Origin: TPA_inf: Saccharomyces
Lineage: Eukaryota
Direction: 5' to 3'
Assembly: GCA_000146045.2 (NCBI GenBank)
Contig: BK006941.2
Location: forward strand, 256,001 to 320,000
DNA: 64,000 nt
The number at the start of each line of letters is the position of its first letter. Within the stretch, counting starts at the first letter, position 1. Position numbers and translations under genes: made by a program. Below, one piece after another: positions 5,648 to 63,852 of this stretch. The notes under the pieces were generated by a model. It had not been told where the DNA came from, did no database searches, and was given only the letters and a program-made list of their open reading frames with translations.

Positions 5648-8600
5648 TTACTGGCTTGATGGATGCGTATTTTTGTCGGTACCAGCTTCTGAAATATCGA
5701 TATCAAACATAGCTGGCTCAATTCCTTCCATCAATTGCTGGGTAATTTCGACTGGTAAACCGTTATCGTTAGAGATATTAGCAGATGCGCTATCAAAATC
5801 GAGTTCTTGGGCACCTGATCTCAAATTGCAAGAATGGCAAATAATATCTTCATACCAGTATAAACTTTTGTTTGTACCACAATGTGGGCAAGTCCTTTCG
5901 AAAGGAAGTACGTAAATTTTGGGTTTAATAGCAGAGTCGTGTGAGTTTCCTGGCATTTCGCCGTGTCGCAGTCTAAGCTGTTCAAAATATCTCAACTCCA
6001 CTAGACTATGGTCAGATTCGCACTTATAATATCTGCAGTATTGTTCTATGTATGACAGAGTATGTTGAGGCTTGTACGATAATGGATAAAGTTCGTTTCC
6101 TTCTAAGCTGATATCGTGTCTATCGCATATTAGTATAGGTCTCAAAGTGTATGTATCGTTAAGCTTGACATCCTTTATGCACGGTAGAGTGGTGTCTACA
6201 GACATATTTTTCTTTTCAAACATAAGCTTAAAATTGGAGCTGTTCTGTGCACATGTAATATGATACCTATATTGGCATTTGTTACACTTCACTAACCCAC
6301 CTCCATTTATCCTGCACACACCACATGTAAATCTACTATGTTTAATAAGCACAGCAGTGGTATTAAGGGCAGGTTGCATTGATTGTCCGTTTCCATATTT
6401 GATATCTTCATTGAAAAGTGAGCAAACCAAATGCACCCATGTCCCTAAGCTCGTGCATTTCAATGCGTCTGGACATATTTTAAATGATTGGCTCCTATAT
6501 CTATCATAGTCATAGTCCTTCGTAGGACACATACTACATTGGTAGGTCGTTGATATTATAGGATTGAGGTCATTTGAACAAGGGTCACATAACCATTTAA
6601 ATGTCTTAAGGTTAGTGTTTTTCTTCATATCTTTCGGCAGTTTAATAGCATAACAGAAGTAGTGTACTGTAAGTCCACAATTACCACATACTACCTCATA
6701 GTTGTCATTGTCGTTAAATTTTTCTTTGCAGACACTACAAAAAGTCCTTGCGCTATTATTTGCCCATGCTGTATCAGGATTTTTTGGTTTATTCTTAGTG
6801 TGTTTCAAAATCATGTCTTTCTCTAACATTTTGCTCGGTTTATTACCATCATGGTATTTTTCAAGGGCGACAGAAGTTTCCTTAGAATGTGAAATAACTG
6901 TATAATTGTACGATGCCCCGTTTGGTTCGTTTAACGGATTACTTAACGCTATGTCATTGATCATTTTGATCTTCTTCGTTGAAGGTTCATTATATTTTGG
7001 CAGCTTATTATTCACTAACTTTAAGCTATTCCGTAATCGCTGAAATGTTTTGTTATCAAATTTGACAAATTTAAAACCTTTATCTACAGACACTGAACCA
7101 GAAGAACTGCCGCCTGTTTTAATTGAAATTTCTATCAAATCATTCGAAGCATTAGTGATTTTAGGAATATTGTTATTACTAGCCTTCTCGATAAATACAT
7201 CGTTGCACTTGCGATTTCGGCTTGTATCACTTGTTTTGATAGTACCAGGTGATTGTCGAATTATGTTCACGGGAAATTCGTCCTTTGTGTTTTTCGCTCT
7301 TTCTGGCTTTTGTTCAGGGATGGCTTTTCTTACCTCTTTGTTGTCCTCTATAAATAGCTCAAGATCTCGTTGCATCGTCTCCGGGTGAAACTCATTCTTT
7401 CGATATGATCTCACAGCCATTTTGTAGAGTTGCGTGTGGAATGTCATGGAATACCGCTTCATTTTCACAAATGAATTTGGGTTCTTGTAAACTTTCATTC
7501 TTTGCCTGATAATTAGCTCTGAATCCTGAACAAGTTCCCATTCTAGTAGTTTATTATGAGCTTGAAAGGGAGATAACGTAAACTTGTTTGTGTTATTCTC
7601 CTCTATAATCCCTTCTATCGCTGAATAAAAACTATTCTGACAGGTTCCCGTTATTTTTCTCAATGTTTCAAGCGGTGGTACCCACTTAATTGCGTATCTT
7701 CGCCACATACGAGCACAACGAATGCAAAGAGCGCCAAGTTTTTCATTCTTTTTGCTATGGGCAGGCGATTTCTCTGAAATTTCTGTTTTTTCGTTGACTC
7801 CTGTCTGCATTCTTATCTTGATCTTTTCATCATCTGAACCTCCAGTAACTCTATACCACATCGGGGAGTAATCTGTTTTACAAAACATGCATTGGAAGGA
7901 GGATTCTGCTAAAGAGAGTTTCTCAGTATCAAAAGAAGAATCATCTATATACTTTGTCTCTACGTCATTTTCATGATTAGCGATTTCTTTTTTTCTTTTA
8001 TTCTTTGATAACTTACTCAATTTCCCTCTCACGGTAAGGCCTCTTTCAGTCTTTTTCCAATTGTAATAAAATCTAACAATCATCGACATAGGTTGAGTGC
8101 CCACATACTCACACACTGGGCGTAATTCACTCCCAAATTTCTCGACAGCTTCCTCAAACTTTCGGATCTCCACGGCGGTAAAACTTGGCTCTTTCAAAAA
8201 TTTTCTGGAAAGCTCCCTTTTACATTTTTTAAATGCCTCTGCTGTATCATAATTTGTAAATAATAAATTCTTTAGGACTACATCAATGAAATTACAAGTC
8301 TCACCTCTCACATTGAGAATAGGGCATATTTCGCTTTTGCATTGTTCAATATATTCACTCAATTTTCGAGTAGTAATTTTTGATGCATCAAGTACCCATG
8401 CTAGTTCCGAAGTTTTCGTTGAGCCTCGCTCTTCTTCTGAATTTGCACTTATATACGAGTTCCGCCTCCAGGGCACATTATGATTACATCCGTTCCATTG
8501 ATACTTCACTCCTACCCTAGAGGGTTTGAAAGGATATGGAAAAAACATAGAATCATTTAATGCGTCACCAATATGAGAAATGGAATATATTCCTAAGTAT

Positions 8601-9859
8601 TGAAACCAGCAATTTTCGGTATTATAACCAACATTCTCTTTGATAGCTTTGCTAGAAATTTCTTCAATTTTTTGTCTTACAGAGCGAATAAAATCCAGTT
8701 CCAGTGCTTGTTCTTCTAGAAACCTAACATGCGAGTCCTTAGTACCTTGTTGTTTCTGTAAGCAACTGAAGCAGGTCCAAACGACGTCTTTGTTCGGCTT
8801 CCTGTCAAGTGGCGGATCCATACAGTATAGATGTGCACAAACGCCGCATTCATCACATGAAAGGCTCTCCTTTTGGATACACCATTCTTTACAGAACTGA
8901 CATCTTTTATCCCATTGGTAGTCTGCAGGACTTAATTCGTTTACCTCTAGTTCATGGAAAACGTATTTCTTCAAAACGTTCTCCAATGGATACTTCGGTT
9001 CTGTATAGATATAACGAAATCTCCTATTCAAAACATAAAGAAATGGCGACTTACTGTTCCATTTATTTAATATTTTATCCGTGCTGTAAACTTTGTAATA
9101 TTTCAAAGTATATCTGTCAAAAAGTTCATCAAAGTAAAAGATATTGGGTCGTATAATGCATTCCTTCTCATTAGGAAGAACATCAAAAACTTCGTCTTTA
9201 TGAAATATACTACATTTTCCCCTGTATGATGAAATAGGACATATGTCCTGGTGTAATGATGCATACACCAACCTTGGGTTAAAAGTATTTACGTGCTCTT
9301 GAATATCCCTAGGACGATAAAACCAATTCATTCTAACTTGAAAAAATTTAGCAGGGAAGACCGATGTTGTCTTTATAGCTTCATGAATAGTGTTAGAAAA
9401 TTCTGGTTTACTAACAAAATTTACAACTCTGCCAACATAATAAGGCTCGCCAGCAGGCTCTGATATCATATAAATAGTGTCGTTCGCAGATAAAAGGACA
9501 GATTCTGTATTGAAAAGAGACATCTTTTTCAAGTCAATCATGGCATCATCTAGATCAAGTATGTTAGAGAATCTGCTATTCTTTCTGAACGAAGGGGGTA
9601 ATGTAGGGATAAAGTTCCAGCAAGTATTCTTATCATGAAGGAATTTTTGGTACTTGAATTTCTCGTTTCTACTAGCTGGATTGCTTGTCCTTTTACAATT
9701 CCTGGGAGTTTGGCTATTGCTACCCTTGGTCTTAGCACCACTTTTTTCCGCTATTTGTATTTGTTGAACTAATTTAGTATCTATTTCCATTTCATTATAA
9801 TTCACGTTTTTAGCAGCCTCTCTTCTTCTAGGTAATTGGAAATCTTCTTCTTTAGGCAT
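5648..9859 (-). CDS. SNT2: Snt2, a BAH/PHD/SANT-domain E3 ligase and chromatin protein
   Basis: A 1403-aa ORF with several Cys/His-rich PHD/RING-type fingers (CDECGVCAHLYCMDPP..WTCFSCL; CSVCKEKFNDNDNYEVVCGNCGLTVHYFCY; CGVCRINGGGLVKCNKCQYRYHITC). Length and sequence match Snt2 (YGL131C). Confidence 0.9.
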   Translation of the reverse strand: MPKEEDFQLPRRREAAKNVNYNEMEIDTKLVQQIQIAEKSGAKTKGSNSQTPRNCKRTSNPASRNEKFKYQKFLHDKNTCWNFIPTLPPSFRKNSRFSNILDLDDAMIDLKKMSLFNTESVLLSANDTIYMISEPAGEPYYVGRVVNFVSKPEFSNTIHEAIKTTSVFPAKFFQVRMNWFYRPRDIQEHVNTFNPRLVYASLHQDICPISSYRGKCSIFHKDEVFDVLPNEKECIIRPNIFYFDELFDRYTLKYYKVYSTDKILNKWNSKSPFLYVLNRRFRYIYTEPKYPLENVLKKYVFHELEVNELSPADYQWDKRCQFCKEWCIQKESLSCDECGVCAHLYCMDPPLDRKPNKDVVWTCFSCLQKQQGTKDSHVRFLEEQALELDFIRSVRQKIEEISSKAIKENVGYNTENCWFQYLGIYSISHIGDALNDSMFFPYPFKPSRVGVKYQWNGCNHNVPWRRNSYISANSEEERGSTKTSELAWVLDASKITTRKLSEYIEQCKSEICPILNVRGETCNFIDVVLKNLLFTNYDTAEAFKKCKRELSRKFLKEPSFTAVEIRKFEEAVEKFGSELRPVCEYVGTQPMSMIVRFYYNWKKTERGLTVRGKLSKLSKNKRKKEIANHENDVETKYIDDSSFDTEKLSLAESSFQCMFCKTDYSPMWYRVTGGSDDEKIKIRMQTGVNEKTEISEKSPAHSKKNEKLGALCIRCARMWRRYAIKWVPPLETLRKITGTCQNSFYSAIEGIIEENNTNKFTLSPFQAHNKLLEWELVQDSELIIRQRMKVYKNPNSFVKMKRYSMTFHTQLYKMAVRSYRKNEFHPETMQRDLELFIEDNKEVRKAIPEQKPERAKNTKDEFPVNIIRQSPGTIKTSDTSRNRKCNDVFIEKASNNNIPKITNASNDLIEISIKTGGSSSGSVSVDKGFKFVKFDNKTFQRLRNSLKLVNNKLPKYNEPSTKKIKMINDIALSNPLNEPNGASYNYTVISHSKETSVALEKYHDGNKPSKMLEKDMILKHTKNKPKNPDTAWANNSARTFCSVCKEKFNDNDNYEVVCGNCGLTVHYFCYAIKLPKDMKKNTNLKTFKWLCDPCSNDLNPIISTTYQCSMCPTKDYDYDRYRSQSFKICPDALKCTSLGTWVHLVCSLFNEDIKYGNGQSMQPALNTTAVLIKHSRFTCGVCRINGGGLVKCNKCQYRYHITCAQNSSNFKLMFEKKNMSVDTTLPCIKDVKLNDTYTLRPILICDRHDISLEGNELYPLSYKPQHTLSYIEQYCRYYKCESDHSLVELRYFEQLRLRHGEMPGNSHDSAIKPKIYVLPFERTCPHCGTNKSLYWYEDIICHSCNLRSGAQELDFDSASANISNDNGLPVEITQQLMEGIEPAMFDIDISEAGTDKNTHPSSQ

Positions 9860-10144
9860 AGCGTGACCAGCTGAAAGGCAGATGATCTCAATATGTCCCG
9901 ATAGGCCAATTTTGCCACCAGATAGTTCGATGGCATTTTATTTTTAGTCCTTTTGAAAGCAATATCATAAAATATATATAGTTCTCCATGATGTTCGGGT
10001 CAGTCGCTCCGAAGCGTAACCTAGTATAATAAATAGTTCATTGCAGAAAATAACGAAAGAAATGGTGGAATACGATCTGTTATATCTAAACTAAAGCTAA
10101 CTAACGGAATAAGCAAATACGAATCGACCGCTAATTTAACAAAT

Positions 10145-11524
10145 ATGGTTTTAGCAATGGAAAGTAGAGTGGCACCGGAAATTCCTGGGCTCATTCAACC
10201 TGGGAATGTCACGCAAGACTTGAAGATGATGGTCTGTAAATTATTGAATTCCCCAAAACCTACGAAAACATTCCCTGGTTCCCAGCCTGTGTCCTTTCAG
10301 CATTCTGATGTGGAAGAGAAGCTGCTTGCGCATGATTACTACGTTTGTGAGAAAACAGATGGTCTGCGGGTGTTGATGTTTATAGTGATAAATCCTGTGA
10401 CGGGTGAGCAAGGATGCTTTATGATTGATAGGGAAAATAACTATTATCTGGTTAATGGATTTAGGTTTCCCAGATTACCCCAAAAGAAGAAAGAAGAGCT
10501 GCTAGAGACTCTTCAAGATGGCACCTTATTAGATGGTGAACTTGTCATACAAACTAACCCAATGACAAAATTACAAGAGTTGCGTTATTTAATGTTCGAT
10601 TGTCTTGCTATCAATGGTAGATGTCTCACACAATCACCAACAAGTTCTAGACTAGCCCACCTTGGAAAAGAATTTTTTAAACCATACTTCGATTTAAGAG
10701 CAGCGTACCCTAATCGTTGTACTACTTTTCCGTTCAAAATTTCCATGAAACATATGGATTTCAGTTACCAATTAGTAAAAGTTGCTAAAAGTTTAGATAA
10801 ACTACCACATCTTTCTGATGGTCTGATATTTACTCCTGTGAAGGCACCTTACACTGCCGGCGGAAAAGATTCATTGTTATTAAAATGGAAGCCAGAACAA
10901 GAAAACACCGTGGACTTCAAATTGATTTTAGATATCCCAATGGTGGAGGATCCTTCTTTGCCTAAAGATGATCGGAACAGGTGGTATTACAATTATGACG
11001 TTAAGCCAGTTTTCAGCTTATATGTCTGGCAAGGCGGAGCTGATGTCAATTCACGTTTAAAACATTTCGACCAGCCTTTCGATAGGAAGGAATTTGAAAT
11101 ATTAGAAAGAACATACAGAAAATTTGCAGAGTTGAGCGTTTCAGATGAGGAATGGCAAAATTTGAAGAACCTAGAACAGCCATTAAATGGTAGAATAGTA
11201 GAGTGCGCAAAAAACCAAGAGACTGGGGCGTGGGAAATGTTAAGATTCAGGGATGATAAGTTAAATGGTAATCATACATCGGTGGTCCAGAAAGTTTTGG
11301 AGAGTATCAACGATTCAGTTTCATTGGAGGACCTCGAGGAAATTGTTGGTGATATTAAAAGGTGCTGGGACGAGAGAAGAGCAAATATGGCTGGTGGTAG
11401 TGGGAGACCACTACCGTCTCAAAGTCAAAATGCGACATTATCTACCTCTAAGCCAGTCCATTCACAGCCCCCAAGTAATGATAAGGAGCCAAAATATGTA
11501 GACGAGGATGATTGGTCGGATTAG
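10145..11524 (+). CDS. CEG1: mRNA guanylyltransferase (capping enzyme alpha subunit)
   Basis: 459 aa, carrying the covalent nucleotidyltransferase motif I KTDGLR and the downstream LLDGELV / DGLIF / LLKWK motifs typical of capping enzymes and ligases. Confidence 0.92.
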   Translation: MVLAMESRVAPEIPGLIQPGNVTQDLKMMVCKLLNSPKPTKTFPGSQPVSFQHSDVEEKLLAHDYYVCEKTDGLRVLMFIVINPVTGEQGCFMIDRENNYYLVNGFRFPRLPQKKKEELLETLQDGTLLDGELVIQTNPMTKLQELRYLMFDCLAINGRCLTQSPTSSRLAHLGKEFFKPYFDLRAAYPNRCTTFPFKISMKHMDFSYQLVKVAKSLDKLPHLSDGLIFTPVKAPYTAGGKDSLLLKWKPEQENTVDFKLILDIPMVEDPSLPKDDRNRWYYNYDVKPVFSLYVWQGGADVNSRLKHFDQPFDRKEFEILERTYRKFAELSVSDEEWQNLKNLEQPLNGRIVECAKNQETGAWEMLRFRDDKLNGNHTSVVQKVLESINDSVSLEDLEEIVGDIKRCWDERRANMAGGSGRPLPSQSQNATLSTSKPVHSQPPSNDKEPKYVDEDDWSD

Positions 11525-11722
11525 GCTAAGAAGTGTTCGTATCGACATATATCGGTGTAAGAATTTTGTGTATGAATAAGATAGAAAAGCAAAAGCAATT
11601 GCTTTTGCTAAATTAATTCAGTTAGTTATCTATTTATATGTACATGAGAAATGGGAGAATTTTGAGAAGCGAGGGTGAAAGTGTTATATACGCATATACA
11701 TGTATATATATGCGCATGCTTA

Positions 11723-13117
<1,395 letters not shown>

Positions 13118-13292
13118 TTAATGTTTTCCCTCGAAGTATAGAAGTTGATGTATATATACAATATACATATATATATATTCTTGTACATAGTACTTGCTGA
13201 GTTTCCTTTTCTTTTTCTTCCGTTTTGTAAGAAAGCCCCGGAAAATATAGTGTTCCATAGGATAAAGAAAAACAGGCATACATATGTGCAAG

Positions 13293-14144
13293 CTAGTCGA
13301 GTAGGATAGGTTCATTAGAGACCAGTCTTGCAATATCGTCATTCAGTTCCGTCTCCAAATTAAAATCAGAGTAGTAATGTAGCGGGATCAAGGGCGAAAT
13401 ATCCTTGACCGTGGGTATGAGGTTCCCACTTGACCAGTTTCGGAATACGTGCTGCGCTGTGATGGGAGTATCGAATACAGTATATATGATGATTGAATCA
13501 TCCTTCGAGTAGTTGTTTCTTTCAGAGAAGTAGATGTCGTAGATTTCATTAGCACTTAGCGTGATGAATACTTGATTGCGCAAATGAGATAAGCAGTTTG
13601 ATTTATTATTTGATTGCAGGAAGTTGTCAAGGACAATTCTCAAAGTAGAGCAATCGTAATACGGATGTTGCGAAGCATTTTCTTGGTCTTGTGTGTTGAG
13701 ATGTTTCCAGTCACCATAGGGCAAGTTGAAATGTTTTAGTTTCCTGAGTAGCTCGCCGTGGCGTTGGATTTGCAATAAATCAGGATGTGGTGTGGTGGTG
13801 GGTATCGTACTCGATTCAGATTCTTCCAGCTTTTGTATAAGTTTATTTCTTTCAATGTCGTTTGTTTTCCGTAGGAACTCAATTAACCAGCGGTCGTAAT
13901 GGGGTCTCACGTCTGCATTGGTGAGGATATTAGTTGCGGTCGATAATAAGTGGAATTTGTGTATAATTGATGGATTGTCCGGGTGTTTGTCAGGATGATA
14001 CTTCAGGGCAAGGGTCCTGTATTTGCGTTTAATTTGGGGCAAATCATCGTAGATGGTATGGACGTCCAGGGGGGTCGGTAATTCTAATACATCATATAGG
14101 TTCAAACGTTGATTTATTACGTCTTCCAATTCGTGTCCTGGCAT
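13293..14144 (-). CDS. CWC23: Spliceosome-associated J-domain protein Cwc23
   Basis: J domain with the HPD motif (YRTLALKYHPDKHPDNP). The 283-aa protein begins at the internal Met MPGHELED. The track ORF (to 14336) adds 64 codons read through a (TA)n/(TG)n microsatellite (MNIYTHTHIYISHIYIYICIYI...), which I regard as non-coding. Confidence 0.8.
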   Translation of the reverse strand: MPGHELEDVINQRLNLYDVLELPTPLDVHTIYDDLPQIKRKYRTLALKYHPDKHPDNPSIIHKFHLLSTATNILTNADVRPHYDRWLIEFLRKTNDIERNKLIQKLEESESSTIPTTTPHPDLLQIQRHGELLRKLKHFNLPYGDWKHLNTQDQENASQHPYYDCSTLRIVLDNFLQSNNKSNCLSHLRNQVFITLSANEIYDIYFSERNNYSKDDSIIIYTVFDTPITAQHVFRNWSSGNLIPTVKDISPLIPLHYYSDFNLETELNDDIARLVSNEPILLD

Positions 14145-14268
14145 AGTCGTGGCGAGGCTTGTAGTACGGCGATGGACTTGCTTTTTGATTTTGCTTTCAT
14201 CTTCTAATGTCTTGCGAGATAATATGCAAGGAAAACAAAGGAAAGAAAATACAAAGTAATGCGGCTTG

Positions 14269-14332
14269 CATATATATATACATATATATATGTATATATG
14301 TGATATATATATGTGTGTGTGTGTATATATAT
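14269..14332. repeat. (TA)n/(TG)n compound microsatellite at the CWC23 5' end
   Basis: tatatatatacatatatatatgtatatatgtgatatatatatgtgtgtgtgtgtatatatat. Confidence 0.9.
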
Positions 14333-14391
14333 TCATGAGTGTATAAAATAGATATATGAATGCGTGCGAATGTAGTTATAATTAGGTGTGT

Positions 14392-14775
14392 TCAGTTGGC
14401 CCATCTTTCTACCATTTCATTCATCCATTGCGGGCCTTGTAATTGAATGATCTTGGGCAGCTCGTCTAGCCCTTCCAGCAGGCCATCTTCATTAACGATC
14501 GCCGACTCCATGAACCCGTTCAACAGCTTTAAAATGAAGAGACAGTTTGGATACACAATGCATTGCGAATAAGGGGGGTTGCACCAGTACTCCAGGTATT
14601 TCAAGTAGTTTTTGAAGTTAGGAGACTTCCAGATCTGCTGTTGAGTGAGTAAGTACGTTACGTATTGGATGTTTGCCAGTGACTGGATAAATTCGAGCTC
14701 CACTTCGAACCTCGTGGGGAGAGGATTTTGATCCGAGGAAGGTGTCGCTGGTGCGTTTCCATTAGTGCTTGACAT
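14392..14775 (-). CDS. SOH1: Mediator middle-module subunit Med31 (Soh1)
   Basis: 127 aa with the conserved Med31 core (RFEVELEFIQSLANIQYVTYLL...YWCNPPY). Confidence 0.85.
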   Translation of the reverse strand: MSSTNGNAPATPSSDQNPLPTRFEVELEFIQSLANIQYVTYLLTQQQIWKSPNFKNYLKYLEYWCNPPYSQCIVYPNCLFILKLLNGFMESAIVNEDGLLEGLDELPKIIQLQGPQWMNEMVERWAN

Positions 14776-14996
14776 CCTGGGTGGAGCTTGGGGGAACTTT
14801 GCCGTCTTATGAGTGCTATAAGTTTTGGCTTACTTTGCCTCATTTTTCCTGCATTTCTTTTTCTTTTTCATCCTTTAAGAACACGTTAGCGGGAAAACCG
14901 TGAAATAAAATACAAAACGAACTGTTCGAAAAAAGCCAAAGGGGAAACGCCTAAAACTCCACTGAAACCAGCTATAAAGCACGGCATATTACAACA

Positions 14997-16139
14997 ATGT
15001 CTAGCAAATGGTTTAATGCTATACACCTACTGGTGTGCCCGTTGACGGTACTGGTAGGATATCTCATGAACGCGTATGGCTACGGTGCGGCGCTGCAAGC
15101 AACCCTGAATAAGGATGGTCTGGTAAATGCTATGTTGGTAAAGAAAGGGTGGTTTTGGACTTCCTTGGTCGGATGGTGGTGTATTATACGCTACCGTGCG
15201 GTGCCGGGGGCAACCGGCAGAGACCGAAGACACATTGTCCAGTCATTCAAAAGGTATGCCATACTGACAGTGTGGTGGTACGTATTCACGCAAGGTATAT
15301 GGTTTGGCGTAGGCCCCATCATGGACTTGGTATTCGTATATACGGGTGGCCATTGTCACTATGACGTCTTCGATGATGCAGGTCACGTGAACGAAGACTT
15401 CCAGGGTTCTGTCACCCGGACTAATCGCGCGTTGGCGCTCATTCACAATGTCCTCACTTTGCACGGACACCACCAAGAACACCGTCAGCAACAACTCTGG
15501 GACCGCTCCATAGGGTCGATCCAGGGCGCCCTGCAGGCGACGCAACCGAAAACCCCAAAAAACGTAACGGCCAGCGCTGCCGCTGCCATCAATACTTTTA
15601 TTCATGACCAGATGCACAGGTGGCAAGGTCCGTTAACCACCTCGGCACAGTGCAGACGTTTTGGAGGCCATTGGGCTGGAGGACACGATCCATCCGGGCA
15701 CGTGTTCTTGGCCACCTTGATGTGCATGTTTCTTCTAGGTGAGCTACGTGTGTTTGGGCGTCGTGCACTGGCTCACTTGTACGCGCAGAAATGGCAGCTT
15801 GTACGATTGGTGACCCGCCTTTTCGACACTGGACCGCTATGGACGTGGCGGCGGTGTGGCGGCGGCTCAATGACCTGTGGCGCCCGTTTGTGGCGTGCGA
15901 TAGTCGAGCCGCCTGTCACGTGCGCGGCCGCCCTGCTCCGTTTGACGCGATGCATAGCATGCGACCACCCAGTAATCATACTGCTGACGCTATTGGTCAC
16001 GTGGTTATGGCAGCTGCTGTTGACTGCGGTGGCGTCCCGTTTCCACACCGTACGTGAGCACATGTCTGGATTGCTAGCTGCGTACATAGTGACAGGCCTT
16101 GTCTACGCTCGCGACGCAGCCGCGCTACGTCCAGTATGA
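14997..16139 (+). CDS. SCS3: ER membrane protein Scs3 (FIT family, lipid homeostasis)
   Basis: 380 aa, a multi-pass hydrophobic protein rich in W/R/A, recognised as Scs3 (YGL126W). The gene is strikingly GC-rich, which generates spurious overlapping ORFs in every frame. Confidence 0.85.
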   Translation: MSSKWFNAIHLLVCPLTVLVGYLMNAYGYGAALQATLNKDGLVNAMLVKKGWFWTSLVGWWCIIRYRAVPGATGRDRRHIVQSFKRYAILTVWWYVFTQGIWFGVGPIMDLVFVYTGGHCHYDVFDDAGHVNEDFQGSVTRTNRALALIHNVLTLHGHHQEHRQQQLWDRSIGSIQGALQATQPKTPKNVTASAAAAINTFIHDQMHRWQGPLTTSAQCRRFGGHWAGGHDPSGHVFLATLMCMFLLGELRVFGRRALAHLYAQKWQLVRLVTRLFDTGPLWTWRRCGGGSMTCGARLWRAIVEPPVTCAAALLRLTRCIACDHPVIILLTLLVTWLWQLLLTAVASRFHTVREHMSGLLAAYIVTGLVYARDAAALRPV

Positions 16140-16292
16140 CTCAGGAAAAGTTGGCGATAGACCACGAGCGACTGAAAAAATAACAGCGACTTTTCTCCCG
16201 GTAGCGGGCCGTCGTTTAGTCATTCTATCCCTCGGATTATAGACTGTGAATATTGCATATGCAACTTTGACTCAAATTTTTCCAAAATTTGA

Positions 16293-16356
16293 TATATATA
16301 TATATATATATATGTTTGTATGTATATATATATATACGTATATATATCATATATAC
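16293..16356. repeat. (TA)n compound microsatellite in the SCS3-MET13 intergenic region
   Basis: atatatatatatatatatatgtttgtatgtatatatatatatacgtatatatatcatatatac. Confidence 0.9.
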
Positions 16357-16403
16357 GAAAAGTAGAAAAAAAAAGGTGATATTTCGCTCGTGGAAAAGCT
16401 AAT

Positions 16404-16413
16404 GCCACAGCTT
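16404..16413 (-). promoter_or_regulatory. Possible Met31/Met32 site upstream of MET13
   Basis: The reverse complement AAGCTGTGGC is a 9/10 match to AAACTGTGGC and lies about 110 bp upstream of the MET13 ATG. No CACGTG (Cbf1) site was seen nearby. Confidence 0.25.
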
Positions 16414-16519
16414 GTGTTTCGTGTAGTTTGCCTTGCTCCCCTTGATTGAAATAGTCTCCCTAAACTAAAGTTATCAGCAAACAGAACCACCACAGTTACT
16501 ACTACAACCACATCGCAAT

Positions 16520-18322
16520 ATGAAGATCACAGAAAAATTAGAGCAACATAGACAGACCTCTGGCAAGCCCACTTACTCATTCGAGTACTTCGTCCCGAAG
16601 ACTACACAAGGTGTACAGAACCTGTATGACCGGATGGACCGGATGTACGAGGCTTCTTTGCCCCAATTTATTGACATCACCTGGAATGCAGGCGGTGGAC
16701 GGTTGTCACATCTGTCCACGGACTTGGTTGCGACAGCGCAGTCTGTGCTTGGTTTGGAAACGTGCATGCACCTTACCTGCACCAATATGCCCATTTCGAT
16801 GATTGACGACGCTTTAGAAAACGCTTATCACTCCGGTTGCCAGAACATCCTAGCGCTGAGAGGAGATCCTCCTAGGGACGCAGAAAACTGGACTCCCGTT
16901 GAAGGTGGCTTCCAGTATGCCAAGGACTTGATTAAGTATATCAAGTCCAAGTACGGTGACCATTTCGCTATCGGCGTTGCCGGCTACCCGGAGTGCCATC
17001 CGGAGTTGCCTAACAAAGACGTGAAGCTTGATCTCGAGTATTTGAAGCAGAAGATCGACGCCGGCGGCGACTTCATCATCACTCAGATGTTTTACGATGT
17101 TGATAATTTCATCAACTGGTGTTCCCAAGTTAGAGCTGCGGGCATGGACGTGCCCATTATTCCCGGGATCATGCCGATCACTACCTACGCGGCCTTCTTG
17201 AGAAGGGCCCAATGGGGCCAAATCTCCATCCCTCAACATTTCTCGTCCCGATTGGATCCTATCAAGGACGATGACGAGTTGGTCCGTGATATCGGAACTA
17301 ACTTGATCGTGGAAATGTGTCAAAAATTGCTCGACAGTGGTTACGTTTCTCACTTGCACATCTACACCATGAACTTGGAAAAAGCGCCTCTCATGATTCT
17401 GGAAAGATTGAACATTCTACCTACGGAATCAGAGTTCAATGCACATCCATTGGCCGTGTTGCCATGGAGAAAATCTTTGAATCCAAAGCGTAAAAACGAG
17501 GAAGTCAGACCTATCTTCTGGAAGAGAAGACCTTACTCCTATGTCGCAAGAACCTCTCAATGGGCCGTGGACGAATTCCCCAACGGTAGATTCGGTGATT
17601 CGTCTTCTCCTGCGTTCGGTGACTTGGATCTGTGTGGTTCAGACTTGATCAGGCAATCAGCGAACAAATGTCTCGAATTATGGTCCACCCCTACTTCCAT
17701 CAACGACGTCGCCTTCTTGGTCATCAACTACTTGAATGGAAACTTGAAGTGTTTACCTTGGAGTGATATCCCCATCAATGATGAAATAAATCCAATCAAA
17801 GCACACTTGATTGAGCTGAACCAGCATTCTATCATCACTATAAACTCTCAACCTCAAGTCAACGGCATTAGGTCCAATGACAAAATTCATGGTTGGGGAC
17901 CCAAGGATGGTTACGTTTACCAGAAGCAATATTTGGAATTTATGTTGCCCAAGACTAAGTTGCCCAAGTTGATTGACACCTTGAAAAACAATGAGTTCTT
18001 GACCTACTTCGCCATCGACTCTCAAGGTGACCTGCTAAGTAATCATCCAGACAACTCCAAGTCCAACGCTGTGACTTGGGGTATTTTCCCCGGCAGAGAA
18101 ATTCTTCAACCTACCATTGTCGAGAAAATTTCGTTCTTAGCGTGGAAGGAGGAGTTCTATCATATCTTGAATGAATGGAAACTAAACATGAATAAATACG
18201 ATAAACCGCATAGTGCCCAATTCATTCAGTCCTTGATTGACGATTACTGCTTGGTCAATATTGTTGACAATGACTACATTTCTCCAGATGATCAAATCCA
18301 TTCCATCCTACTAAGCCTATAA
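16520..18322 (+). CDS. MET13: Methylenetetrahydrofolate reductase (major isozyme)
   Basis: 600 aa with an MTHFR catalytic TIM-barrel region (DITWNAGG, GYPECHPE) followed by a eukaryotic regulatory C-terminal domain. Confidence 0.92.
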   Translation: MKITEKLEQHRQTSGKPTYSFEYFVPKTTQGVQNLYDRMDRMYEASLPQFIDITWNAGGGRLSHLSTDLVATAQSVLGLETCMHLTCTNMPISMIDDALENAYHSGCQNILALRGDPPRDAENWTPVEGGFQYAKDLIKYIKSKYGDHFAIGVAGYPECHPELPNKDVKLDLEYLKQKIDAGGDFIITQMFYDVDNFINWCSQVRAAGMDVPIIPGIMPITTYAAFLRRAQWGQISIPQHFSSRLDPIKDDDELVRDIGTNLIVEMCQKLLDSGYVSHLHIYTMNLEKAPLMILERLNILPTESEFNAHPLAVLPWRKSLNPKRKNEEVRPIFWKRRPYSYVARTSQWAVDEFPNGRFGDSSSPAFGDLDLCGSDLIRQSANKCLELWSTPTSINDVAFLVINYLNGNLKCLPWSDIPINDEINPIKAHLIELNQHSIITINSQPQVNGIRSNDKIHGWGPKDGYVYQKQYLEFMLPKTKLPKLIDTLKNNEFLTYFAIDSQGDLLSNHPDNSKSNAVTWGIFPGREILQPTIVEKISFLAWKEEFYHILNEWKLNMNKYDKPHSAQFIQSLIDDYCLVNIVDNDYISPDDQIHSILLSL

Positions 18323-18779
18323 TAACACAGACAACGATAACAGTTCTTTAACAGAATTGTCAACCCCCCCTCTTTGCATTACATTCAACATTACATTGCA
18401 TTTTTTTTTTTTTATTCACTATTATTATGGTTCTTCTTTTTTACCAGATTTTGCTCCTTCCTTTTCCATTGTTTTACCATTCTTTTTTAACTAGCATTTC
18501 AACATGTGTTTGGTTAACACCCCTTCTTTTTTTTCAGGAAAATCCTTTCATTTCTTCTCATACTTTCAACAAAGTTTTTTAAAGGTACTTTAAAATAGTT
18601 CAACACCCTCTTCCTTCATTTATTTATTCTCTTCATATTCAACATACTCGAAAAGGAAGAACACTAAAAGTACTTACATTTTCACATGTATGTATACCTA
18701 TATATATATATATATATACTCTTATAGATATATTTACAAATTAAAGGAAAAAATAATAAAATAACCTCCCTGTCACAAG

Positions 18780-20714
18780 TTAAAACACGGCCCCATCACT
18801 TATAAATAGTCTCGACTCGTGTTTTTGACACCAATTAGCTACTTTTCTCGCACTCTTGAATAAAACCCTTTTGTCAACAATCCCATTATTTCCAATCAGA
18901 TACAATTCAAAAGTGGGCGTCACCCACGCCATTCCTACCATATTAACCGATTCTTGTTTGAATGATGAATTTCCAATAATGTACTCATCCAATTCAGAAA
19001 AATCCATTTGTGTTTCGTCCATCGCCAAGTCCTCATTGTCTTTGGAACTCCATCTAACAAAATTTAACATAGACCTACTTAACAAATTGCCATTATCTCT
19101 CACTACCGTGCCATGTAACTGTTGGTAGTATGTCTTCAATTTCAATTCATATTCTAGCCCCTGTGAAGAATCCAGTGCGATGTTACTGTTGACTTCGAAG
19201 TGCGGCATAACATATTGAACGTTTTGCTTCGATTTATATATGAAATGATGAACCATTGGTGCTGGTATATCGCTAAGCTTGAACCCTTTTGAAGTATTTA
19301 TCTTTTTCAATAGCTTCTCTTCTTCGAGTTTAATAATCAACTCGTCACTAAACGACTTCAATGAAAAGAATGCATCCTTTTGTGCACTTATTAATACTAG
19401 TGCCGATTTCTCATTGCTGTGAGTATCATTAGGTAGAAACTTAATATAACAATAAAGAAAACCACTCGAATTGAACTTGGGAAAACAAATGGGTACCCAA
19501 AGTTCCTGAGTTTCGTCTAAATTTTGAAATTGATGAGATATTAGGCAAAATAGAAGATGTAAATCTGTAGTGTGTAAAGTATGGCCTCTGGGTCGAAGAA
19601 CACAGCACAATTTATTCTGAGGCGCAATTATCAAGCCGTACAGTAAGGTCCCCCTGGGAATGTCCTGCCTTTTCTCCAGTTGCTGTAAAACCACATTCTG
19701 CAACTTTAATCTTGAAGAATGGTTAAATGGTAAGCATTGTAAAGAGTTCAATAGTAAATCCGGGAACATTCTGTTACAGATTAGTGAACATATTTCGTCT
19801 AAATTTTCAAAATCTGTGCTTTCTAGATAATTTCTCAGGTCGAAATTTTCTCTTTTGGAAAATAACCTAAGTAATTGGCGTTCACTTAAAGACGAAAGAA
19901 TATACGAATATAAAAAATCCAACTGATTCAACAATTCGTTCGAGGACTCGCCTCTTTCGGATTGAGCCATTAGTAATATAGGTGATTTATCCAAAAAAGT
20001 AAGCCTTTTACCAGAAGTTAAAGTGGATATAGTTTTCAATTCCGATGGTCCATTGACTTGGAAGTAGCTTATTACCGTATTAACGAGCCCTGTATATGAC
20101 ATGATCTGTTCATCTTTGCCGTGCATGCAATAGATCGGTTTACCCGCTGACGTGAATATGAAGAAATTTTTGTCACAGAGAGTCTGGCTCTCATTTAACT
20201 TGCAGTTACTATTGAACTTCGAAAACTTGAATACATTAGGAATTTCGTTACTTACGTACGGCCGTCTCTGTAGTTCCGATCCTCTTATAGATGTTTCCAT
20301 AGAATATATGCTTTCGGCCAAGCGACTCCTGATGTCATTCTCGCTGTCCAAATAAGGACCGAAATCCTTTTTTGGACTGTTTAGTGCTCTCGTTGTATCA
20401 TCATTGCTCTTTGCCAAATCTGCTGACAATAAATTATTTTTAGCTTGCAATTTTTTTGTTTGCAAAGGAGATCTTCTGGATGCCAAAGATGTTGTATTCA
20501 AAGAATTTACAGAGGTAGATTTACTAACAGAATGATCATCGCATATTGGCATTGCTATAGGCGCCTTCTTGAAGAATGTTTCATCTAGATTAACCGATGT
20601 CGTTGGTTCTGAAGTCGTTGCCACGATTGGAATACCCTCAAAATTCCCACTTTTACTATGCTTCAATTGACCCTTCGGTATCTCAGCATCTAGGTAGCTT
20701 TCATTGAGATTCAT
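18780..20714 (-). CDS. MON1: Mon1, a subunit of the Mon1-Ccz1 Rab7/Ypt7 GEF
   Basis: 644 aa; sequence recognised as Mon1 (YGL124C), including the longin-like region. Confidence 0.88.
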   Translation of the reverse strand: MNLNESYLDAEIPKGQLKHSKSGNFEGIPIVATTSEPTTSVNLDETFFKKAPIAMPICDDHSVSKSTSVNSLNTTSLASRRSPLQTKKLQAKNNLLSADLAKSNDDTTRALNSPKKDFGPYLDSENDIRSRLAESIYSMETSIRGSELQRRPYVSNEIPNVFKFSKFNSNCKLNESQTLCDKNFFIFTSAGKPIYCMHGKDEQIMSYTGLVNTVISYFQVNGPSELKTISTLTSGKRLTFLDKSPILLMAQSERGESSNELLNQLDFLYSYILSSLSERQLLRLFSKRENFDLRNYLESTDFENLDEICSLICNRMFPDLLLNSLQCLPFNHSSRLKLQNVVLQQLEKRQDIPRGTLLYGLIIAPQNKLCCVLRPRGHTLHTTDLHLLFCLISHQFQNLDETQELWVPICFPKFNSSGFLYCYIKFLPNDTHSNEKSALVLISAQKDAFFSLKSFSDELIIKLEEEKLLKKINTSKGFKLSDIPAPMVHHFIYKSKQNVQYVMPHFEVNSNIALDSSQGLEYELKLKTYYQQLHGTVVRDNGNLLSRSMLNFVRWSSKDNEDLAMDETQMDFSELDEYIIGNSSFKQESVNMVGMAWVTPTFELYLIGNNGIVDKRVLFKSARKVANWCQKHESRLFISDGAVF

Positions 20715-22945: not shown

Positions 22946-24523
22946 TCAGTTCATTTCCGTATCTTGTTCTTGGTGCGTAAAACTGGTTTGCGGAGGAGCA
23001 TTTTCAATTATTGCGTTTTCTGGCAATGCAAATGGCCTTTCATTGGTAGGAACGTTTGAATTGGGTGCAGCGCCTTTCTTTTCCGGAAGTACTCTGCCTG
23101 GAGGATGTCTGAATAGACAGTAAATATTCTTACAATTGACACCAAATCTACAATCTTCATTAATTGGATGGCCAAATAAACAATCAATTCTAGTACAGTT
23201 TGCTCCTTCACGGCACATAATATGAGAACGAGCATGTCTATATTTGCAACGTTTATTGGTGCAGTGCGTACCGAACTTACATTGTTCTAAGGACTTTTCA
23301 ACCGGAGGTGGAGCTGCTTTCTTCTGGCTTATTGGTTTTACTTCCTTGATCTTCGACAATGAAGAGTGGGCCTTTCTACACTCAGGATTATCACATGTCA
23401 AATTCTTGTCACACCACATTAGATCAATGACTTTCGCATCTTCATTTGCTGGTGTTGGATGACCAAATGGGCATGATGGATTGGAACACAGAGCCCCAAA
23501 TTTACACAGAACGATACCAGTTTGTACCGGTTTCCTTTTTGCCGCCAATAAATCAGCTTTTCTTTTTTGAAATTCTTCACGAGTTCTTTCCATTTCCTTC
23601 ATCAACTCTTCATCTTCATTTGGATGTAAAAACTCACAAGTTCCGGGAGGCTTTGGACAATTTGGATATTCATTACATACCTTAGTTGGGTGTGCATGTG
23701 GGCATGATCTACCAAGAGGACAGTGAGGAAACAATCTGCAACGCCCCTCTTTCTTGGTTGGAGTGAAGTTCATATTACTCTCACCCGCCATTCCAAGTGC
23801 TTTTGCTAACGGATTAAAACGTGTGGAATTATTGTTGCGTCCTCCACGGTTCCCACCGCGACCACCTCTACGATTCTTTCCAACGGCGCCTCCGCCACGT
23901 TGAGTGAACCTTTGGCTGTTATCTACAGGCGCAAACTGAGGGGGAGCTGCAGCGTTAACAACGCCGGAAAAGGCTGATATGGGGGATGGAGTTGCAGGAG
24001 CATCTGTCTGCATTGCATTCTGGGTCCCTAGTTGTGGCTGAAGTGGTTGAAGTTGAGGTTGCTGTTGAGGTTGCTGTTGAGGTTGCTGTTGAGGTTGCTG
24101 TTGAGGTTGCTGTTGAGGTTGCTGTTGAGGTTGCTGTTGAGGTTGCTGTTGAGGTTGCTGTTGCGCGATGTCTGGTTGCTGTTGTTGTTGTTGCTGTTGT
24201 TGCTGTTGTGCGATATCCGATTGTCCCAAGCTTTGCGCATTCATCATTCTAATTTTGGAAACAATATTTTCAGCACTTTCTCCCTGTTGCAGAGCTTCTA
24301 ATGCGAAAAAGGCTGTTTGAACAACATTTGCAAGCGTATCTCTCGAAACACTATCAAACAAACTAGCCAGCTCGTCTACGACAGATTCAACAGTACCACC
24401 GTTAACGATCAATAAGACAATATACTCCGCAACATACTTGATATCTTCGTTAAAGTTTGGTATACCAGCCAGTTTTTCGGCAACGATAACCTTCAAGTTT
24501 TCTGTGTACTGTTCTTGAGACAT
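22946..24523 (-). CDS. NAB2: Nuclear poly(A)+ RNA-binding protein Nab2
   Basis: 525 aa with a QQQP repeat domain plus polyQ, an RGG region, and seven tandem CCCH zinc fingers (C-x5-C-x4-6-C-x3-H). Confidence 0.92.
   Translation of the reverse strand: MSQEQYTENLKVIVAEKLAGIPNFNEDIKYVAEYIVLLIVNGGTVESVVDELASLFDSVSRDTLANVVQTAFFALEALQQGESAENIVSKIRMMNAQSLGQSDIAQQQQQQQQQQQPDIAQQQPQQQPQQQPQQQPQQQPQQQPQQQPQQQPQQQPQLQPLQPQLGTQNAMQTDAPATPSPISAFSGVVNAAAPPQFAPVDNSQRFTQRGGGAVGKNRRGGRGGNRGGRNNNSTRFNPLAKALGMAGESNMNFTPTKKEGRCRLFPHCPLGRSCPHAHPTKVCNEYPNCPKPPGTCEFLHPNEDEELMKEMERTREEFQKRKADLLAAKRKPVQTGIVLCKFGALCSNPSCPFGHPTPANEDAKVIDLMWCDKNLTCDNPECRKAHSSLSKIKEVKPISQKKAAPPPVEKSLEQCKFGTHCTNKRCKYRHARSHIMCREGANCTRIDCLFGHPINEDCRFGVNCKNIYCLFRHPPGRVLPEKKGAAPNSNVPTNERPFALPENAIIENAPPQTSFTHQEQDTEMN
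24040..24215 (-). repeat. In-frame 12-bp tandem repeat (TTGAGGTTGCTG)x9 plus a (TTG/CTG)n tract, coding QQQP repeats and polyQ in NAB2
   Basis: Perfect 12-mer units run from about 24053 to 24160, followed by gttgttgttgttgctgttgttgctgttg. On the coding (minus) strand this gives ...QQPQQQPQQQP... and Q9. Confidence 0.9.
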
Positions 24524-25633: not shown

Positions 25634-27985
<2,352 letters not shown>

Positions 27986-63780: not shown

Positions 63781-63852
63781 GCCATCTTAGTATAGTGGTT
63801 AGTACACATCGTTGTGGCCGATGAAACCCTGGTTCGATTCTAGGAGATGGCA
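63781..63852 (+). tRNA. tH(GUG): tRNA-His (GUG)
   Basis: GCCATCTTAGTATAGTGGTTAGTACACATCGTTGTGGCCGATGAAACCCTGGTTCGATTCTAGGAGATGGCA, 72 nt with anticodon GTG, A box TAGTGGTTAG and B box GGTTCGATTCT. A T-rich terminator follows (cattttttcc). Confidence 0.92.

Follow-up and report, generated by a model that had tools for sequence, protein, structure and literature searches.

The yeast gene SCS3 lies at the summit of a GC peak of ~5 kb that spans four genes (CWC23-SOH1-SCS3-MET13; coordinates 13293–18322 of the window, a 64,000-nucleotide stretch of contig BK006941.2). The peak is shared, with the same synteny, by six Saccharomyces species and is eroding toward S. cerevisiae. SCS3 itself is an ordinary yeast gene that has been inherited vertically. 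The best explanation of the peak, and probably the correct one, is GC-biased gene conversion that has acted over the long term on a conserved, recombination-active region, with recombination-linked conversion bias as the most likely driving force.

SCS3 (14997–16139, plus strand) encodes a 380-residue FIT-family acyl-CoA diphosphatase and is 55.3% GC, compared with 38.2% for the whole window; the values by codon position are 0.58 (GC1), 0.475 (GC2) and 0.604 (GC3). Compared with the other 27 ORFs in the window that reach 150 aa or more, it has z-scores of 6.1 for GC and 4.0 for GC3s (0.58), and the window-wide GC maximum falls in SCS3 at all sliding-window sizes between 60 and 1000 bp. A reading made from the sequence alone (hereafter the sequence-only reading) described a sharp GC-rich island climbing to about 70% GC in its 3′ half. 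SCS3 is the most GC-rich spot of the window and a 5′ to 3′ gradient is present (50%, 54%, 56.5% and 61% by quarters), but the gene is the summit of a four-gene peak, and the strength was overstated: the 3′ half is 58.8% GC and ~70% is reached only in windows of 60–100 bp (maximum 73%). The local maximum (15841–15940; no strand; 73% GC over 100 bp) contains an 11 bp direct duplication (GTGGCGGCGGT x1.9; 15845–15865), and the count of 43/60 G+C reported for 15841–15900 is exact on recount. Codons rare in yeast are frequent, as had been observed (GCG 14, CTG 13, GGC 12, CCG 6 and CGG 3), and AGA provides 3 of the 28 Arg codons. Searches of the literature for SCS3/YGL126W together with GC content found no account of this composition.

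The statement that no neighbouring gene resembles SCS3 is wrong at synonymous sites, because MET13, SOH1 and CWC23 share the GC3 rise. SOH1/MED31 (14392–14775, minus strand) is the divergent upstream neighbour, with a GC3 of 0.59 here and 0.85 in S. uvarum; MET13 (16520–18322, plus strand; methylenetetrahydrofolate reductase) lies downstream, with values of 0.58 and 0.86. CWC23 (13293–14144, minus strand; a DnaJ-domain protein) lies at the outer end of the peak and is less strongly raised (0.48, and 0.67 in S. uvarum), its start at 14144 being set from orthologues while the mechanical ORF extends to 14336. The other ORFs of the window have GC3 values of 0.32–0.45, and the six genes flanking the peak 0.33–0.43. 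The rise is regional, extending over four adjacent genes that lie on both strands and have unrelated functions. Raised GC1 and GC2 are seen among the peak genes only in SCS3; GC1 and GC2 of MET13 are almost constant across the Saccharomyces species while its GC3 climbs, which argues that the MET13 protein is constrained.

The edges of the peak fall between genes, with RSM23 (11723–13075, minus strand) the first gene to the left and MON1 (18780–20714, minus strand) the first to the right; their GC3 values in the six Saccharomyces species are 0.35–0.44 and 0.36–0.41, respectively. The left edge, between RSM23 and CWC23 (~13.1–13.3 kb), is sharp: in S. uvarum the value drops from 0.82 at the 3′ end of CWC23 to 0.38 at the 5′ end of RSM23, ~350 bp away. 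The right edge, between MET13 and MON1 (~18.3–18.8 kb), is graded over the 3′ end of MET13. AT-type repeats do flank SCS3, at 14270–14342 and 16292–16355, but they are not the abrupt boundaries that they were taken to be: high GC3 persists on the far side of each, which excludes the (TA)n tracts as domain boundaries, and the upstream repeat lies beyond SOH1, ~650 bp from SCS3.

In the GC-rich species, part of the intergenic DNA within the peak appears to gain GC too. The CWC23-SOH1 spacer, which is not adjacent to SCS3 and contains the upstream imperfect (AT)n/(TG)n tract (14270–14342; no strand), has a GC content that goes from 0.32 in S. cerevisiae to 0.50 in S. uvarum, and a counterpart of its tract is present in S. 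kudriavzevii, S. eubayanus and S. uvarum. The divergent SOH1-SCS3 promoter region (14776–14996; no strand) has a GC content of 0.41 here and of 0.49–0.50 in the same three species, and is a candidate meiotic break site. The SCS3-MET13 spacer (16140–16519; no strand), which serves as the MET13 promoter and holds the imperfect (AT)n tract at 16292–16355, is mildly enriched (0.34–0.42 across species), with a TA-type tract at the same relative position in all six Saccharomyces species. Spacers outside the peak (SNT2-CEG1, CEG1-RSM23, RSM23-CWC23, MET13-MON1, MON1-RPS2 and RPS2-NAB2) range from 0.25 to 0.39 in all species.

The height of the peak differs among the six Saccharomyces species compared (S. 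paradoxus was left out). GC3 of SCS3 is 0.60 in S. cerevisiae, 0.60 in S. mikatae, 0.78 in S. kudriavzevii, 0.72 in S. arboricola, 0.87 in S. eubayanus and 0.90 in S. uvarum; the corresponding values for MET13 are 0.58, 0.58, 0.74, 0.66, 0.81 and 0.86, and the flanking genes remain at 0.30–0.45 throughout. A peak of the Saccharomyces type was not found in the five other genera examined, where the GC3 values of SCS3 are 0.32 (N. dairenensis), 0.36 (N. glabratus and Z. rouxii), 0.46 (L. fermentati) and 0.63 (T. globosa), the last against a background of 0.47–0.56. The common ancestor of Saccharomyces already carried the peak, in a stronger form.

Substitutions were polarised by strict parsimony at sites conserved in the other species, with multiple hits ignored. 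On the S. cerevisiae terminal branch GC→AT and AT→GC changes number 98:22 in the peak versus 142:215 in the flanks (Fisher p=5e-16). The same contrast is present on the stem of S. cerevisiae and S. mikatae (77:3 versus 85:105) and on the stem that these two share with S. kudriavzevii (36:9 versus 63:54). The ratio for the peak genes on the S. uvarum terminal branch is 11:23. For third positions of the S. uvarum peak, an equilibrium GC of 0.88 follows from the per-site rates and equals the present value, and the per-site ratio of AT→GC to GC→AT rates is ~7.6 versus 1.8 in the flanks. These between-species rates in S. uvarum are compatible with a fixation bias toward GC.

A GC-biased gene conversion hotspot local to SCS3 was one of three explanations offered in the sequence-only reading and fits best of the three, with the amendment that the process is regional (four genes), genus-wide, old and decaying in S. 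cerevisiae. Meiotic breaks would arise in the promoter-containing spacers of the CWC23-MET13 block, and repair of AT/GC mismatches in heteroduplex DNA would slightly favour G and C. Yeast hotspots located at promoters and fixed in place for millions of years would allow such a bias to build up. The GC-ward push may then have weakened in the lineage that gave rise to S. cerevisiae and S. mikatae, where AT-biased mutation would now be wearing the peak down, while in S. uvarum the peak is presumably still upheld. Yeast gene conversion is GC-biased with an effect on long-term evolution (Lesecque et al. 2013, PMC3649680), GC3 declines with distance from break sites (Marsolier-Kergoat 2011, PMC3020949), promoter hotspots hold their position and strength across Saccharomyces (Lam & Keeney preprint, 10.1101/023176), and hot intergenic regions have about a twofold excess of long dinucleotide repeats (PMC2267716). 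A literature search on recombination at YGL125W/SCS3/MET13 found no hotspot data and only classical met13 tetrad data; in wild-type tetrads met13 has a non-2:2 segregation rate of 2.4%, the second highest of 11 markers in the NHY background (PMC2709914).

Several observations stand against conversion bias. Conversion bias as measured in yeast is small, and yeast rarely outcrosses (PMC3649680), such that a GC3 of 0.9 needs a strong and long-lived local effect. The edge between CWC23 and RSM23 is sharper than conversion tracts of kilobase length would naively give, and the SCS3-MET13 spacer, an expected holder of a hotspot, rises only from 0.36 to 0.42. The causal direction is also disputed, given that a URA3 gene recoded to be GC-rich becomes a meiotic and mitotic hotspot, and its authors argue that GC content creates hotspots and not the reverse (PMC6064992).

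The best-placed alternative, which we nevertheless consider unlikely, is a regional GC-ward bias of mutation or repair that acts without transmission bias, with the peak as a mutational equilibrium and with error-prone break-repair synthesis, replication context or transcription-coupled repair as its source. It would accommodate an enrichment that is regional, extends to spacer DNA in species with high GC and does not depend on codon optimality. Spontaneous yeast mutations lean toward AT, however, and the rate ratio of ~7.6 versus 1.8 in S. uvarum would demand a very strong and sharply bounded shift. GC-rich DNA does alter the yeast mutation rate and spectrum, but what is reported is a higher mutation rate and not a GC-ward spectrum (PMC6064992).

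Slightly less probable again is selection for high GC itself, as a useful hotspot or as a chromatin state (nucleosome occupancy or axis/loop organisation), that has been relaxed in S. cerevisiae and S. mikatae. The hotspot behaviour of GC-rich URA3 (PMC6064992) is in its favour, as is the conservation of hotspot strength between species, considered possibly adaptive by Lam & Keeney (10.1101/023176). The segment from RSM23 to MET13 also acts as a unit for reporter expression, an effect that is ascribed by its authors to clustered Met4-regulated genes (PMC5417705). Such selection would need to act on thousands of single synonymous sites despite rare sex, and the drift of Scs3 to Ala, Gly and Arg resembles a passive consequence rather than a target. 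The proportional genome-wide difference between species (slope 1.59, PMC2997560) further suggests a general process whose strength varies among species.

Selection confined to SCS3, acting on the mRNA structure or translation speed of a polytopic ER membrane protein, had also been proposed in the sequence-only reading and is very improbable. The raised GC1 and GC2 peculiar to SCS3 and its frequent rare codons would be in keeping with it. However, the functionally unrelated MET13, SOH1 and CWC23 share the GC3 rise on both strands, the spacers seem to be partly enriched as well, and orthologues in five other genera keep the fold and the motifs without GC enrichment. Codon optimality also declines as GC3 rises: with an optimal-codon list taken from established knowledge, Fop of SCS3 drops from 0.41 in S. 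cerevisiae to 0.32 in S. uvarum while GC3 rises from 0.58 to 0.90, and translational selection is therefore rejected as the cause of the peak. Fop of MET13 is steady at 0.57–0.61 across species as its GC3s rises from 0.56 to 0.86, and RPS2 has an Fop of 0.94 at a GC3s of 0.42.

All six of the additional ORFs (68–127 aa) reported to overlap SCS3 were found. They are present because GC-rich DNA is poor in stop codons, the antisense frame being closed only by the rare sense codons TTA, CTA and TCA (11/380 in SCS3 versus 1/388 in S. uvarum). The alternative frames of SCS3 have one stop per 26 codons, compared with one per 16 elsewhere and one per 53 in S. uvarum SCS3. A functional overlapping or antisense gene is rejected as unnecessary given these counts.

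The product of the ORF at 14997–16139 is 100% identical to S. cerevisiae Scs3 and matches PF10261 along its full length (Pfam E=1.1e-59; residues 35–370). The GGHDPSGH and FHT..E motifs are retained in 11 of 11 aligned orthologues from 11 species. Scs3 thus shares with the FIT/FITM family of ER acyl-CoA diphosphatases both the full-length Pfam match and the conserved histidine motifs. The traits of this family do not account for the composition of SCS3, as orthologues in other genera are AT-rich. All 44 matches in a homologue search are FIT proteins (PF10261) and all of the named ones belong to Saccharomycetaceae, with identities of 79–100% within Saccharomyces and no more than 44% outside, declining with taxonomic distance. 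MED31/SOH1 is directly upstream and divergent of SCS3 in all six Saccharomyces species (this window included) and in four of the five other genera; L. fermentati has one further called gene between the two. Identities of MET13 and SOH1 track the species tree (77% for MET13 between S. cerevisiae and N. dairenensis, and 70% between S. cerevisiae and L. fermentati). Acquisition of SCS3, or of the whole 5 kb block, from a GC-rich donor by ancient horizontal transfer or introgression, as the sequence-only reading had suggested for SCS3, is the least probable explanation and is rejected, since its genome-atypical composition and codon usage and its sharp left edge are outweighed by the taxonomy of the homologues, the conserved gene order, the composition shared with neighbours, the ordinary MET13 and SOH1 distances, the equidistance of SCS3 from the outgroups, and a substitutional equilibrium in S. 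uvarum where a single import would decay everywhere. The composition is common to all sensu stricto SCS3 genes with an ordinary phylogeny, the pattern that this reading had itself set against a transfer, and a false lead is removed: the atypical composition seen here in a model genome does not mark foreign DNA.

Scs3 is the sole protein of the peak whose composition is shifted toward Gly, Ala, Arg and Pro, those of SOH1 and MET13 being unchanged. Its GARP/FYMINK ratio is 1.6–2.1 in Saccharomyces versus 0.46–0.82 in the five other genera, and R/(R+K) is 0.73–0.89 versus 0.42–0.59. It is about 40–47% identical between any two genera and roughly equidistant (37–46%) from every outgroup, and is a fast-evolving, loosely constrained membrane protein. 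Under long-term conversion bias the constrained MET13 and SOH1 would absorb the GC bias at synonymous sites alone, while Scs3 would absorb it also at codon positions 1 and 2, becoming enriched in Ala, Gly and Arg and depleted of Lys, Asn, Ile and Phe. Non-adaptive amino acid change arising from biased gene conversion was reportedly described for yeasts in general by Harrison and Charlesworth in 2011 (as cited in PMC3649680). The mammalian case of conversion-driven amino acid change (PMC12290510) is similar in that weak constraint together with strong GC-ward substitution leads to Gly, Ala, Arg and Pro, and in that the constrained neighbours of SCS3 are altered at silent sites only. It differs in that mammalian episodes are brief as hotspots move, whereas the SCS3 state has lasted through the entire Saccharomyces radiation.

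CWC23-MET13 may thus constitute a discrete, long-lived and recombination-driven GC domain of lineage-specific strength, kept at an equilibrium GC3 of about 0.9 in S. uvarum but under erosion in S. cerevisiae and S. mikatae, in which about a tenth of Scs3 has been passively rewritten to Ala, Gly and Arg; this fuller reading is put forward tentatively. If true, the locus would be a compact natural experiment on how strong GC-biased conversion is in yeast and how it turns over. It would also allow one to ask whether amino acid changes that conversion imposes on a conserved enzyme do harm, are neutral or are compensated. It could also inform the dispute as to whether recombination makes DNA GC-rich or GC-rich DNA draws recombination. 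Regional extent, conservation in the genus, strength that differs among species, and the responses of constrained and loose proteins are visible together at SCS3, providing a finely resolved example of a process mostly described by genome-wide averages.

GC-biased conversion peaks are a known genome-wide phenomenon (Lynch et al. 2010) and this is not a new kind of system. GC3 peaks in Saccharomyces have long been tied to recombination (Sharp & Lloyd 1993, Bradnam 1999 and Birdsell 2002, as cited in PMC2997560). The break-site conversion model (PMC3020949, PMC3649680) resembles the SCS3 peak in that GC3 is high near promoter spacers, is independent of expression, and declines along the 3′ part of MET13 into MON1. 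Unlike the model, the peak forms a plateau over several genes, such that more than one break site would be needed, and its edge between CWC23 and RSM23 falls off more steeply than expected from an exponential tract model. Lynch, Logue, Butler & Wolfe (2010) reported peaks that are fixed in place and steeper in S. bayanus, with a GC3 of ~90% in the top genes of that species versus ~67% in S. cerevisiae (PMC2997560). The SCS3 peak is like these in comprising several adjacent genes with raised GC3 at a location conserved in Saccharomyces, in having the highest amplitude in the S. bayanus/uvarum lineage and the lowest in S. cerevisiae and S. mikatae, and in that species differ most at the peaks and not in the troughs. 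It differs in that the published peaks are 15-gene moving averages, whereas the SCS3 peak is narrowed down to ~5 kb and four genes, one of its edges being sharp, and in that the GC3s of 0.90 in S. uvarum SCS3 exceeds the ~0.75 that the published regression predicts from the S. cerevisiae value (PMC2997560).

The 64 kb window comes from S. cerevisiae. Its SCS3 ORF (14997–16139, forward strand) encodes a full-length FIT-family protein of 380 aa (PF10261, E=1e-59) matching S. cerevisiae Scs3 at 100% identity. To its left are SOH1/MED31 (14392–14775), CWC23 (13293–14144), which has a DnaJ domain, and, on the far side of CWC23, RSM23 (11723–13075), all on the reverse strand; to its right are MET13 (16520–18322, forward strand), encoding an MTHFR, and, on the far side of MET13, MON1 (18780–20714, reverse strand). 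Gene names in the window are taken from orthologue annotations of search matches. Gene calls and mechanical ORFs at SCS3 loci show 5′ over-extension: the S. cerevisiae CWC23 ORF (13293–14336) runs 64 codons 5′ of the homology-supported start, across a (TA)n tract, and S. eubayanus SOH1 (9368–9961 of its locus, L003) is called at 197 aa, versus ~128 aa from homology. The sole tRNA detected in the window is a tRNA-His (GTG) at 63781–63852.

With 55.3% GC versus 38.2% for the window, SCS3 contains the GC maximum of all 64 kb whatever the sliding-window size between 60 and 1000 bp; relative to the 27 other window ORFs of at least 150 aa, it has z=6.1 for GC and z=4.0 for GC3s (GC at synonymous third positions). 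GC1, GC2, and GC3 are 0.58, 0.475, and 0.604. The sequence-only reading had described a sharp GC-rich island rich in codons rare in yeast, and its outline is real, although its details are wrong. Such codons are indeed common (GCG 14, CTG 13, GGC 12, CCG 6, and CGG 3), and 43 of the 60 bases at 15841–15900 are G or C, as claimed. GC also rises from 5′ to 3′ (50%, 54%, 56.5%, and 61% by quarters), but the 3′ half has 58.8% rather than the ~70% proposed, a level restricted to stretches of 60–100 bp. Nor is SCS3 isolated among its neighbours, as had been stated: GC3 is 0.58 in MET13, 0.59 in SOH1, and 0.48 in CWC23, and 0.32–0.45 in every other ORF of the window. At the GC maximum, 15845–15865 is an exact 11-bp direct duplication (GTGGCGGCGGT, 1.9 copies) coding for part of WRRCGGGS; slippage between short direct repeats is reported to be favoured in GC-rich DNA (Kiktev et al. 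2018, PMC6064992). Further short GC-rich spots outside the peak, defined as the top 0.5% of 60–100 bp windows, are at 23831–23985 (within the NAB2 ORF), 27853–27917, 39042–39178, and 51825–51904.

Orthologous loci with 10 kb on each side were compared from another five Saccharomyces species and from five Saccharomycetaceae genera beyond Saccharomyces; the GC feature is regional, with S. cerevisiae and S. mikatae showing its weakest form. The order of the ten genes compared is wholly conserved within Saccharomyces, and SOH1/MED31 is immediately upstream of SCS3 and divergent from it in all six Saccharomyces species and four of the five other genera; L. fermentati has an extra called gene between the two. 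All six Saccharomyces species have a GC3 peak over the same four genes, with values (for S. cerevisiae, S. mikatae, S. kudriavzevii, S. arboricola, S. eubayanus, and S. uvarum, respectively) of 0.48, 0.50, 0.61, 0.53, 0.64, and 0.67 in CWC23, 0.59, 0.63, 0.72, 0.69, 0.84, and 0.85 in SOH1, 0.60, 0.60, 0.78, 0.72, 0.87, and 0.90 in SCS3, and 0.58, 0.58, 0.74, 0.66, 0.81, and 0.86 in MET13. The flanking SNT2, CEG1, RSM23, MON1, RPS2, and NAB2 have GC3 of 0.30–0.45 in all six. No peak is seen in the five genera compared outside Saccharomyces (SCS3 GC3 of 0.32 in N. dairenensis, 0.36 in N. glabratus and Z. rouxii, and 0.46 in L. fermentati), and the peak therefore arose on the genus stem. T. globosa SCS3 (10001–11116 of locus L004) has a GC3 of 0.63, mildly above its neighbours' 0.47–0.56, a rise that could reflect noise, or else a weak peak of independent origin.

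The ten genes were codon-aligned and directions of substitution counted by strict parsimony, with a change accepted only if the remaining species agree; the counts thus cover sites conserved in the other species and ignore multiple hits. On the S. cerevisiae terminal branch, GC-to-AT and AT-to-GC changes number 98 and 22 in the peak versus 142 and 215 in the flanks (Fisher p=5e-16). The corresponding counts are 77:3 versus 85:105 on the stem of S. cerevisiae and S. mikatae, and 36:9 versus 63:54 on the stem that also includes S. kudriavzevii. The S. uvarum terminal branch has 11:23 in the four peak genes, and per-site rates at its third positions give an equilibrium GC of 0.88, equal to the present value. 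The ancestral peak was therefore stronger; it is still actively maintained in S. uvarum and is being eroded toward S. cerevisiae. As parsimony errors usually push AT-to-GC counts up, the excess of GC-to-AT changes is probably a conservative estimate.

Only SCS3, and only within Saccharomyces, has raised GC1 (0.57–0.65) and GC2 (0.47–0.50); its orthologues outside the genus have 0.34–0.44 and 0.34–0.42. The protein differs correspondingly, with a (Gly+Ala+Arg+Pro)/(Phe+Tyr+Met+Ile+Asn+Lys) ratio of 1.6–2.1 in the six Saccharomyces species versus 0.46–0.82 in five others, and Arg/(Arg+Lys) of 0.73–0.89 versus 0.42–0.59; SOH1 and MET13 have no comparable amino-acid shift. Scs3 evolves fast everywhere (37–47% identity between any two genera), with the GGHDPSGH and FHT..E catalytic motifs retained. 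The simplest reading is one regional GC-ward pressure on all four peak genes combined with differing protein constraint, such that strong constraint on MET13 and SOH1 would limit its effects to silent sites and weak constraint on SCS3 would let it reach replacement sites. SCS3 of the two most GC-rich species, S. eubayanus (L003 10001–11182) and S. uvarum (10001–11167 of its locus, L010), has an Ala/Pro-rich loop insertion, alanine-rich in S. eubayanus (LQAAATAAAAAAAAPPAA), that looks like a GC-driven low-complexity expansion.

The six ORFs of 68–127 aa reported to overlap SCS3 are present and are a consequence of composition alone. Its five alternative frames have one stop per 26 codons versus one per 16 in other genes, and one per 53 in S. 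uvarum SCS3. In the antisense frame sharing codon boundaries, stops arise solely from sense TTA, CTA, or TCA, which make up 11 of 380 codons in SCS3, 1 of 388 in S. uvarum SCS3, and 50 of 644 in MON1. MET13 contains a 169-aa antisense ORF (16850–17359, reverse strand), longer than any overlapping SCS3 and, like those, most simply a by-product of raised GC3.

AT-type repeats are located at 14270–14342 and 16292–16355, but they do not border the compositional domain as had been suggested: the upstream one lies between SOH1 and CWC23, and GC3 is still high past both. Total GC dips there solely because the repeats occupy AT-rich spacers. Seven of the nine TA/TG-type tracts of at least eight dinucleotide units in the 64 kb fall within 11693–18718, spread over five successive intergenic regions that surround the peak (11693, 13162, 14267/14304, 16293/16317, and 18699), and a TA-type tract is present 3′ of SCS3 in all six Saccharomyces species. 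They could be nucleosome-free elements of promoters and terminators, or else be linked to recombination; hot spacers have about twice the frequency of long dinucleotide repeats (Bagshaw et al. 2008, PMC2267716). The peak has a very sharp left edge (13076–13292 in the window): the last 50 CWC23 codons of S. uvarum have a GC3 of 0.82 and the first 50 RSM23 codons one of 0.38, a drop across ~350 bp that include a ~200 bp spacer (L010 ~8115–8320). This is sharper than kilobase conversion tracts suggest and is not accounted for by a simple conversion-tract model.

Of the three explanations offered earlier, the data support a conversion hotspot and lead to rejection of the remaining two. We favour long-term GC-biased conversion, in which meiotic breaks in the block's three promoter-containing spacers (candidate sites) would seed conversion, with the GC-ward force having probably weakened in the S. 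cerevisiae/S. mikatae lineage; the preference follows from the Saccharomyces-wide pattern together with the hotspot and conversion literature. Yeast hotspots lie in promoter nucleosome-depleted regions, with place and strength kept genus-wide (Lam & Keeney preprint, 10.1101/023176), GC3 becomes lower farther from break sites (Marsolier-Kergoat 2011, PMC3020949), and conversion has a small GC bias that is proposed to affect evolution in the long run although outcrossing is rare (Lesecque et al. 2013, PMC3649680). In wild-type tetrads of the NHY background, non-2:2 segregation reaches 2.4% at the met13 marker, the second-highest value among 11 markers (HIS4, 2.1%; Zanders & Alani 2009, PMC2709914). 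URA3 recoded to be GC-rich acts as a meiotic hotspot in its own right, and Kiktev et al. (2018, PMC6064992) argue that GC content leads to hotspots and not the reverse; cause and effect may therefore operate in both directions.

A regional mutation bias, or selection for GC content as such, is a possible source of the peak, each with lower probability than conversion. A force specific to coding sequence is unlikely, as two of the peak spacers gain GC as well: from S. cerevisiae to S. uvarum, GC rises from 0.32 to 0.50 between CWC23 and SOH1 and from 0.41 to 0.50 between SOH1 and SCS3, with only mild enrichment between SCS3 and MET13 and 0.25–0.39 in spacers outside the peak. Translational selection fails because the fraction of optimal codons (Fop; codon list from established knowledge) in SCS3 falls from 0.41 in S. 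cerevisiae to 0.32 in S. uvarum while GC3s climbs to 0.90; in MET13 it holds at 0.57–0.61 as GC3s goes from 0.56 to 0.86, and RPS2 has a Fop of 0.94 with a GC3s of 0.42. Horizontal transfer or introgression is dismissed: all 44 SCS3 homologues are FIT proteins and all named ones are from Saccharomycetaceae, identity is 79–100% in the genus and at most 44% beyond, SCS3 lies about equally far from each outgroup (37–46% identity), and the distances of MET13 and SOH1 agree with the species tree.

MET3-promoter reporters are over-expressed in RSM23, CWC23, SOH1, SCS3, and MET13, which is attributed to clustering with Met4-regulated MET13 (Du et al. 2017, PMC5417705), and this block (11723–18322) almost matches the GC peak.

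GC3 peaks occur at conserved places among Saccharomyces species (Lynch, Logue, Butler, and Wolfe 2010, PMC2997560), with GC3 steeper in S. bayanus than in S. cerevisiae (regression slope 1.59; ~90% versus ~67% in the top GC-rich genes), and that study and works cited there name GC-biased gene conversion in recombinationally hot regions as the cause of the peaks. The peak described here is a well-resolved new example of this already known compositional structure, and its value for specialists is modest, chiefly the Scs3 amino-acid shift and the lineage-specific erosion; the CWC23–MET13 pattern is the local form of the genome-wide GC3 peaks of Lynch et al. (2010).
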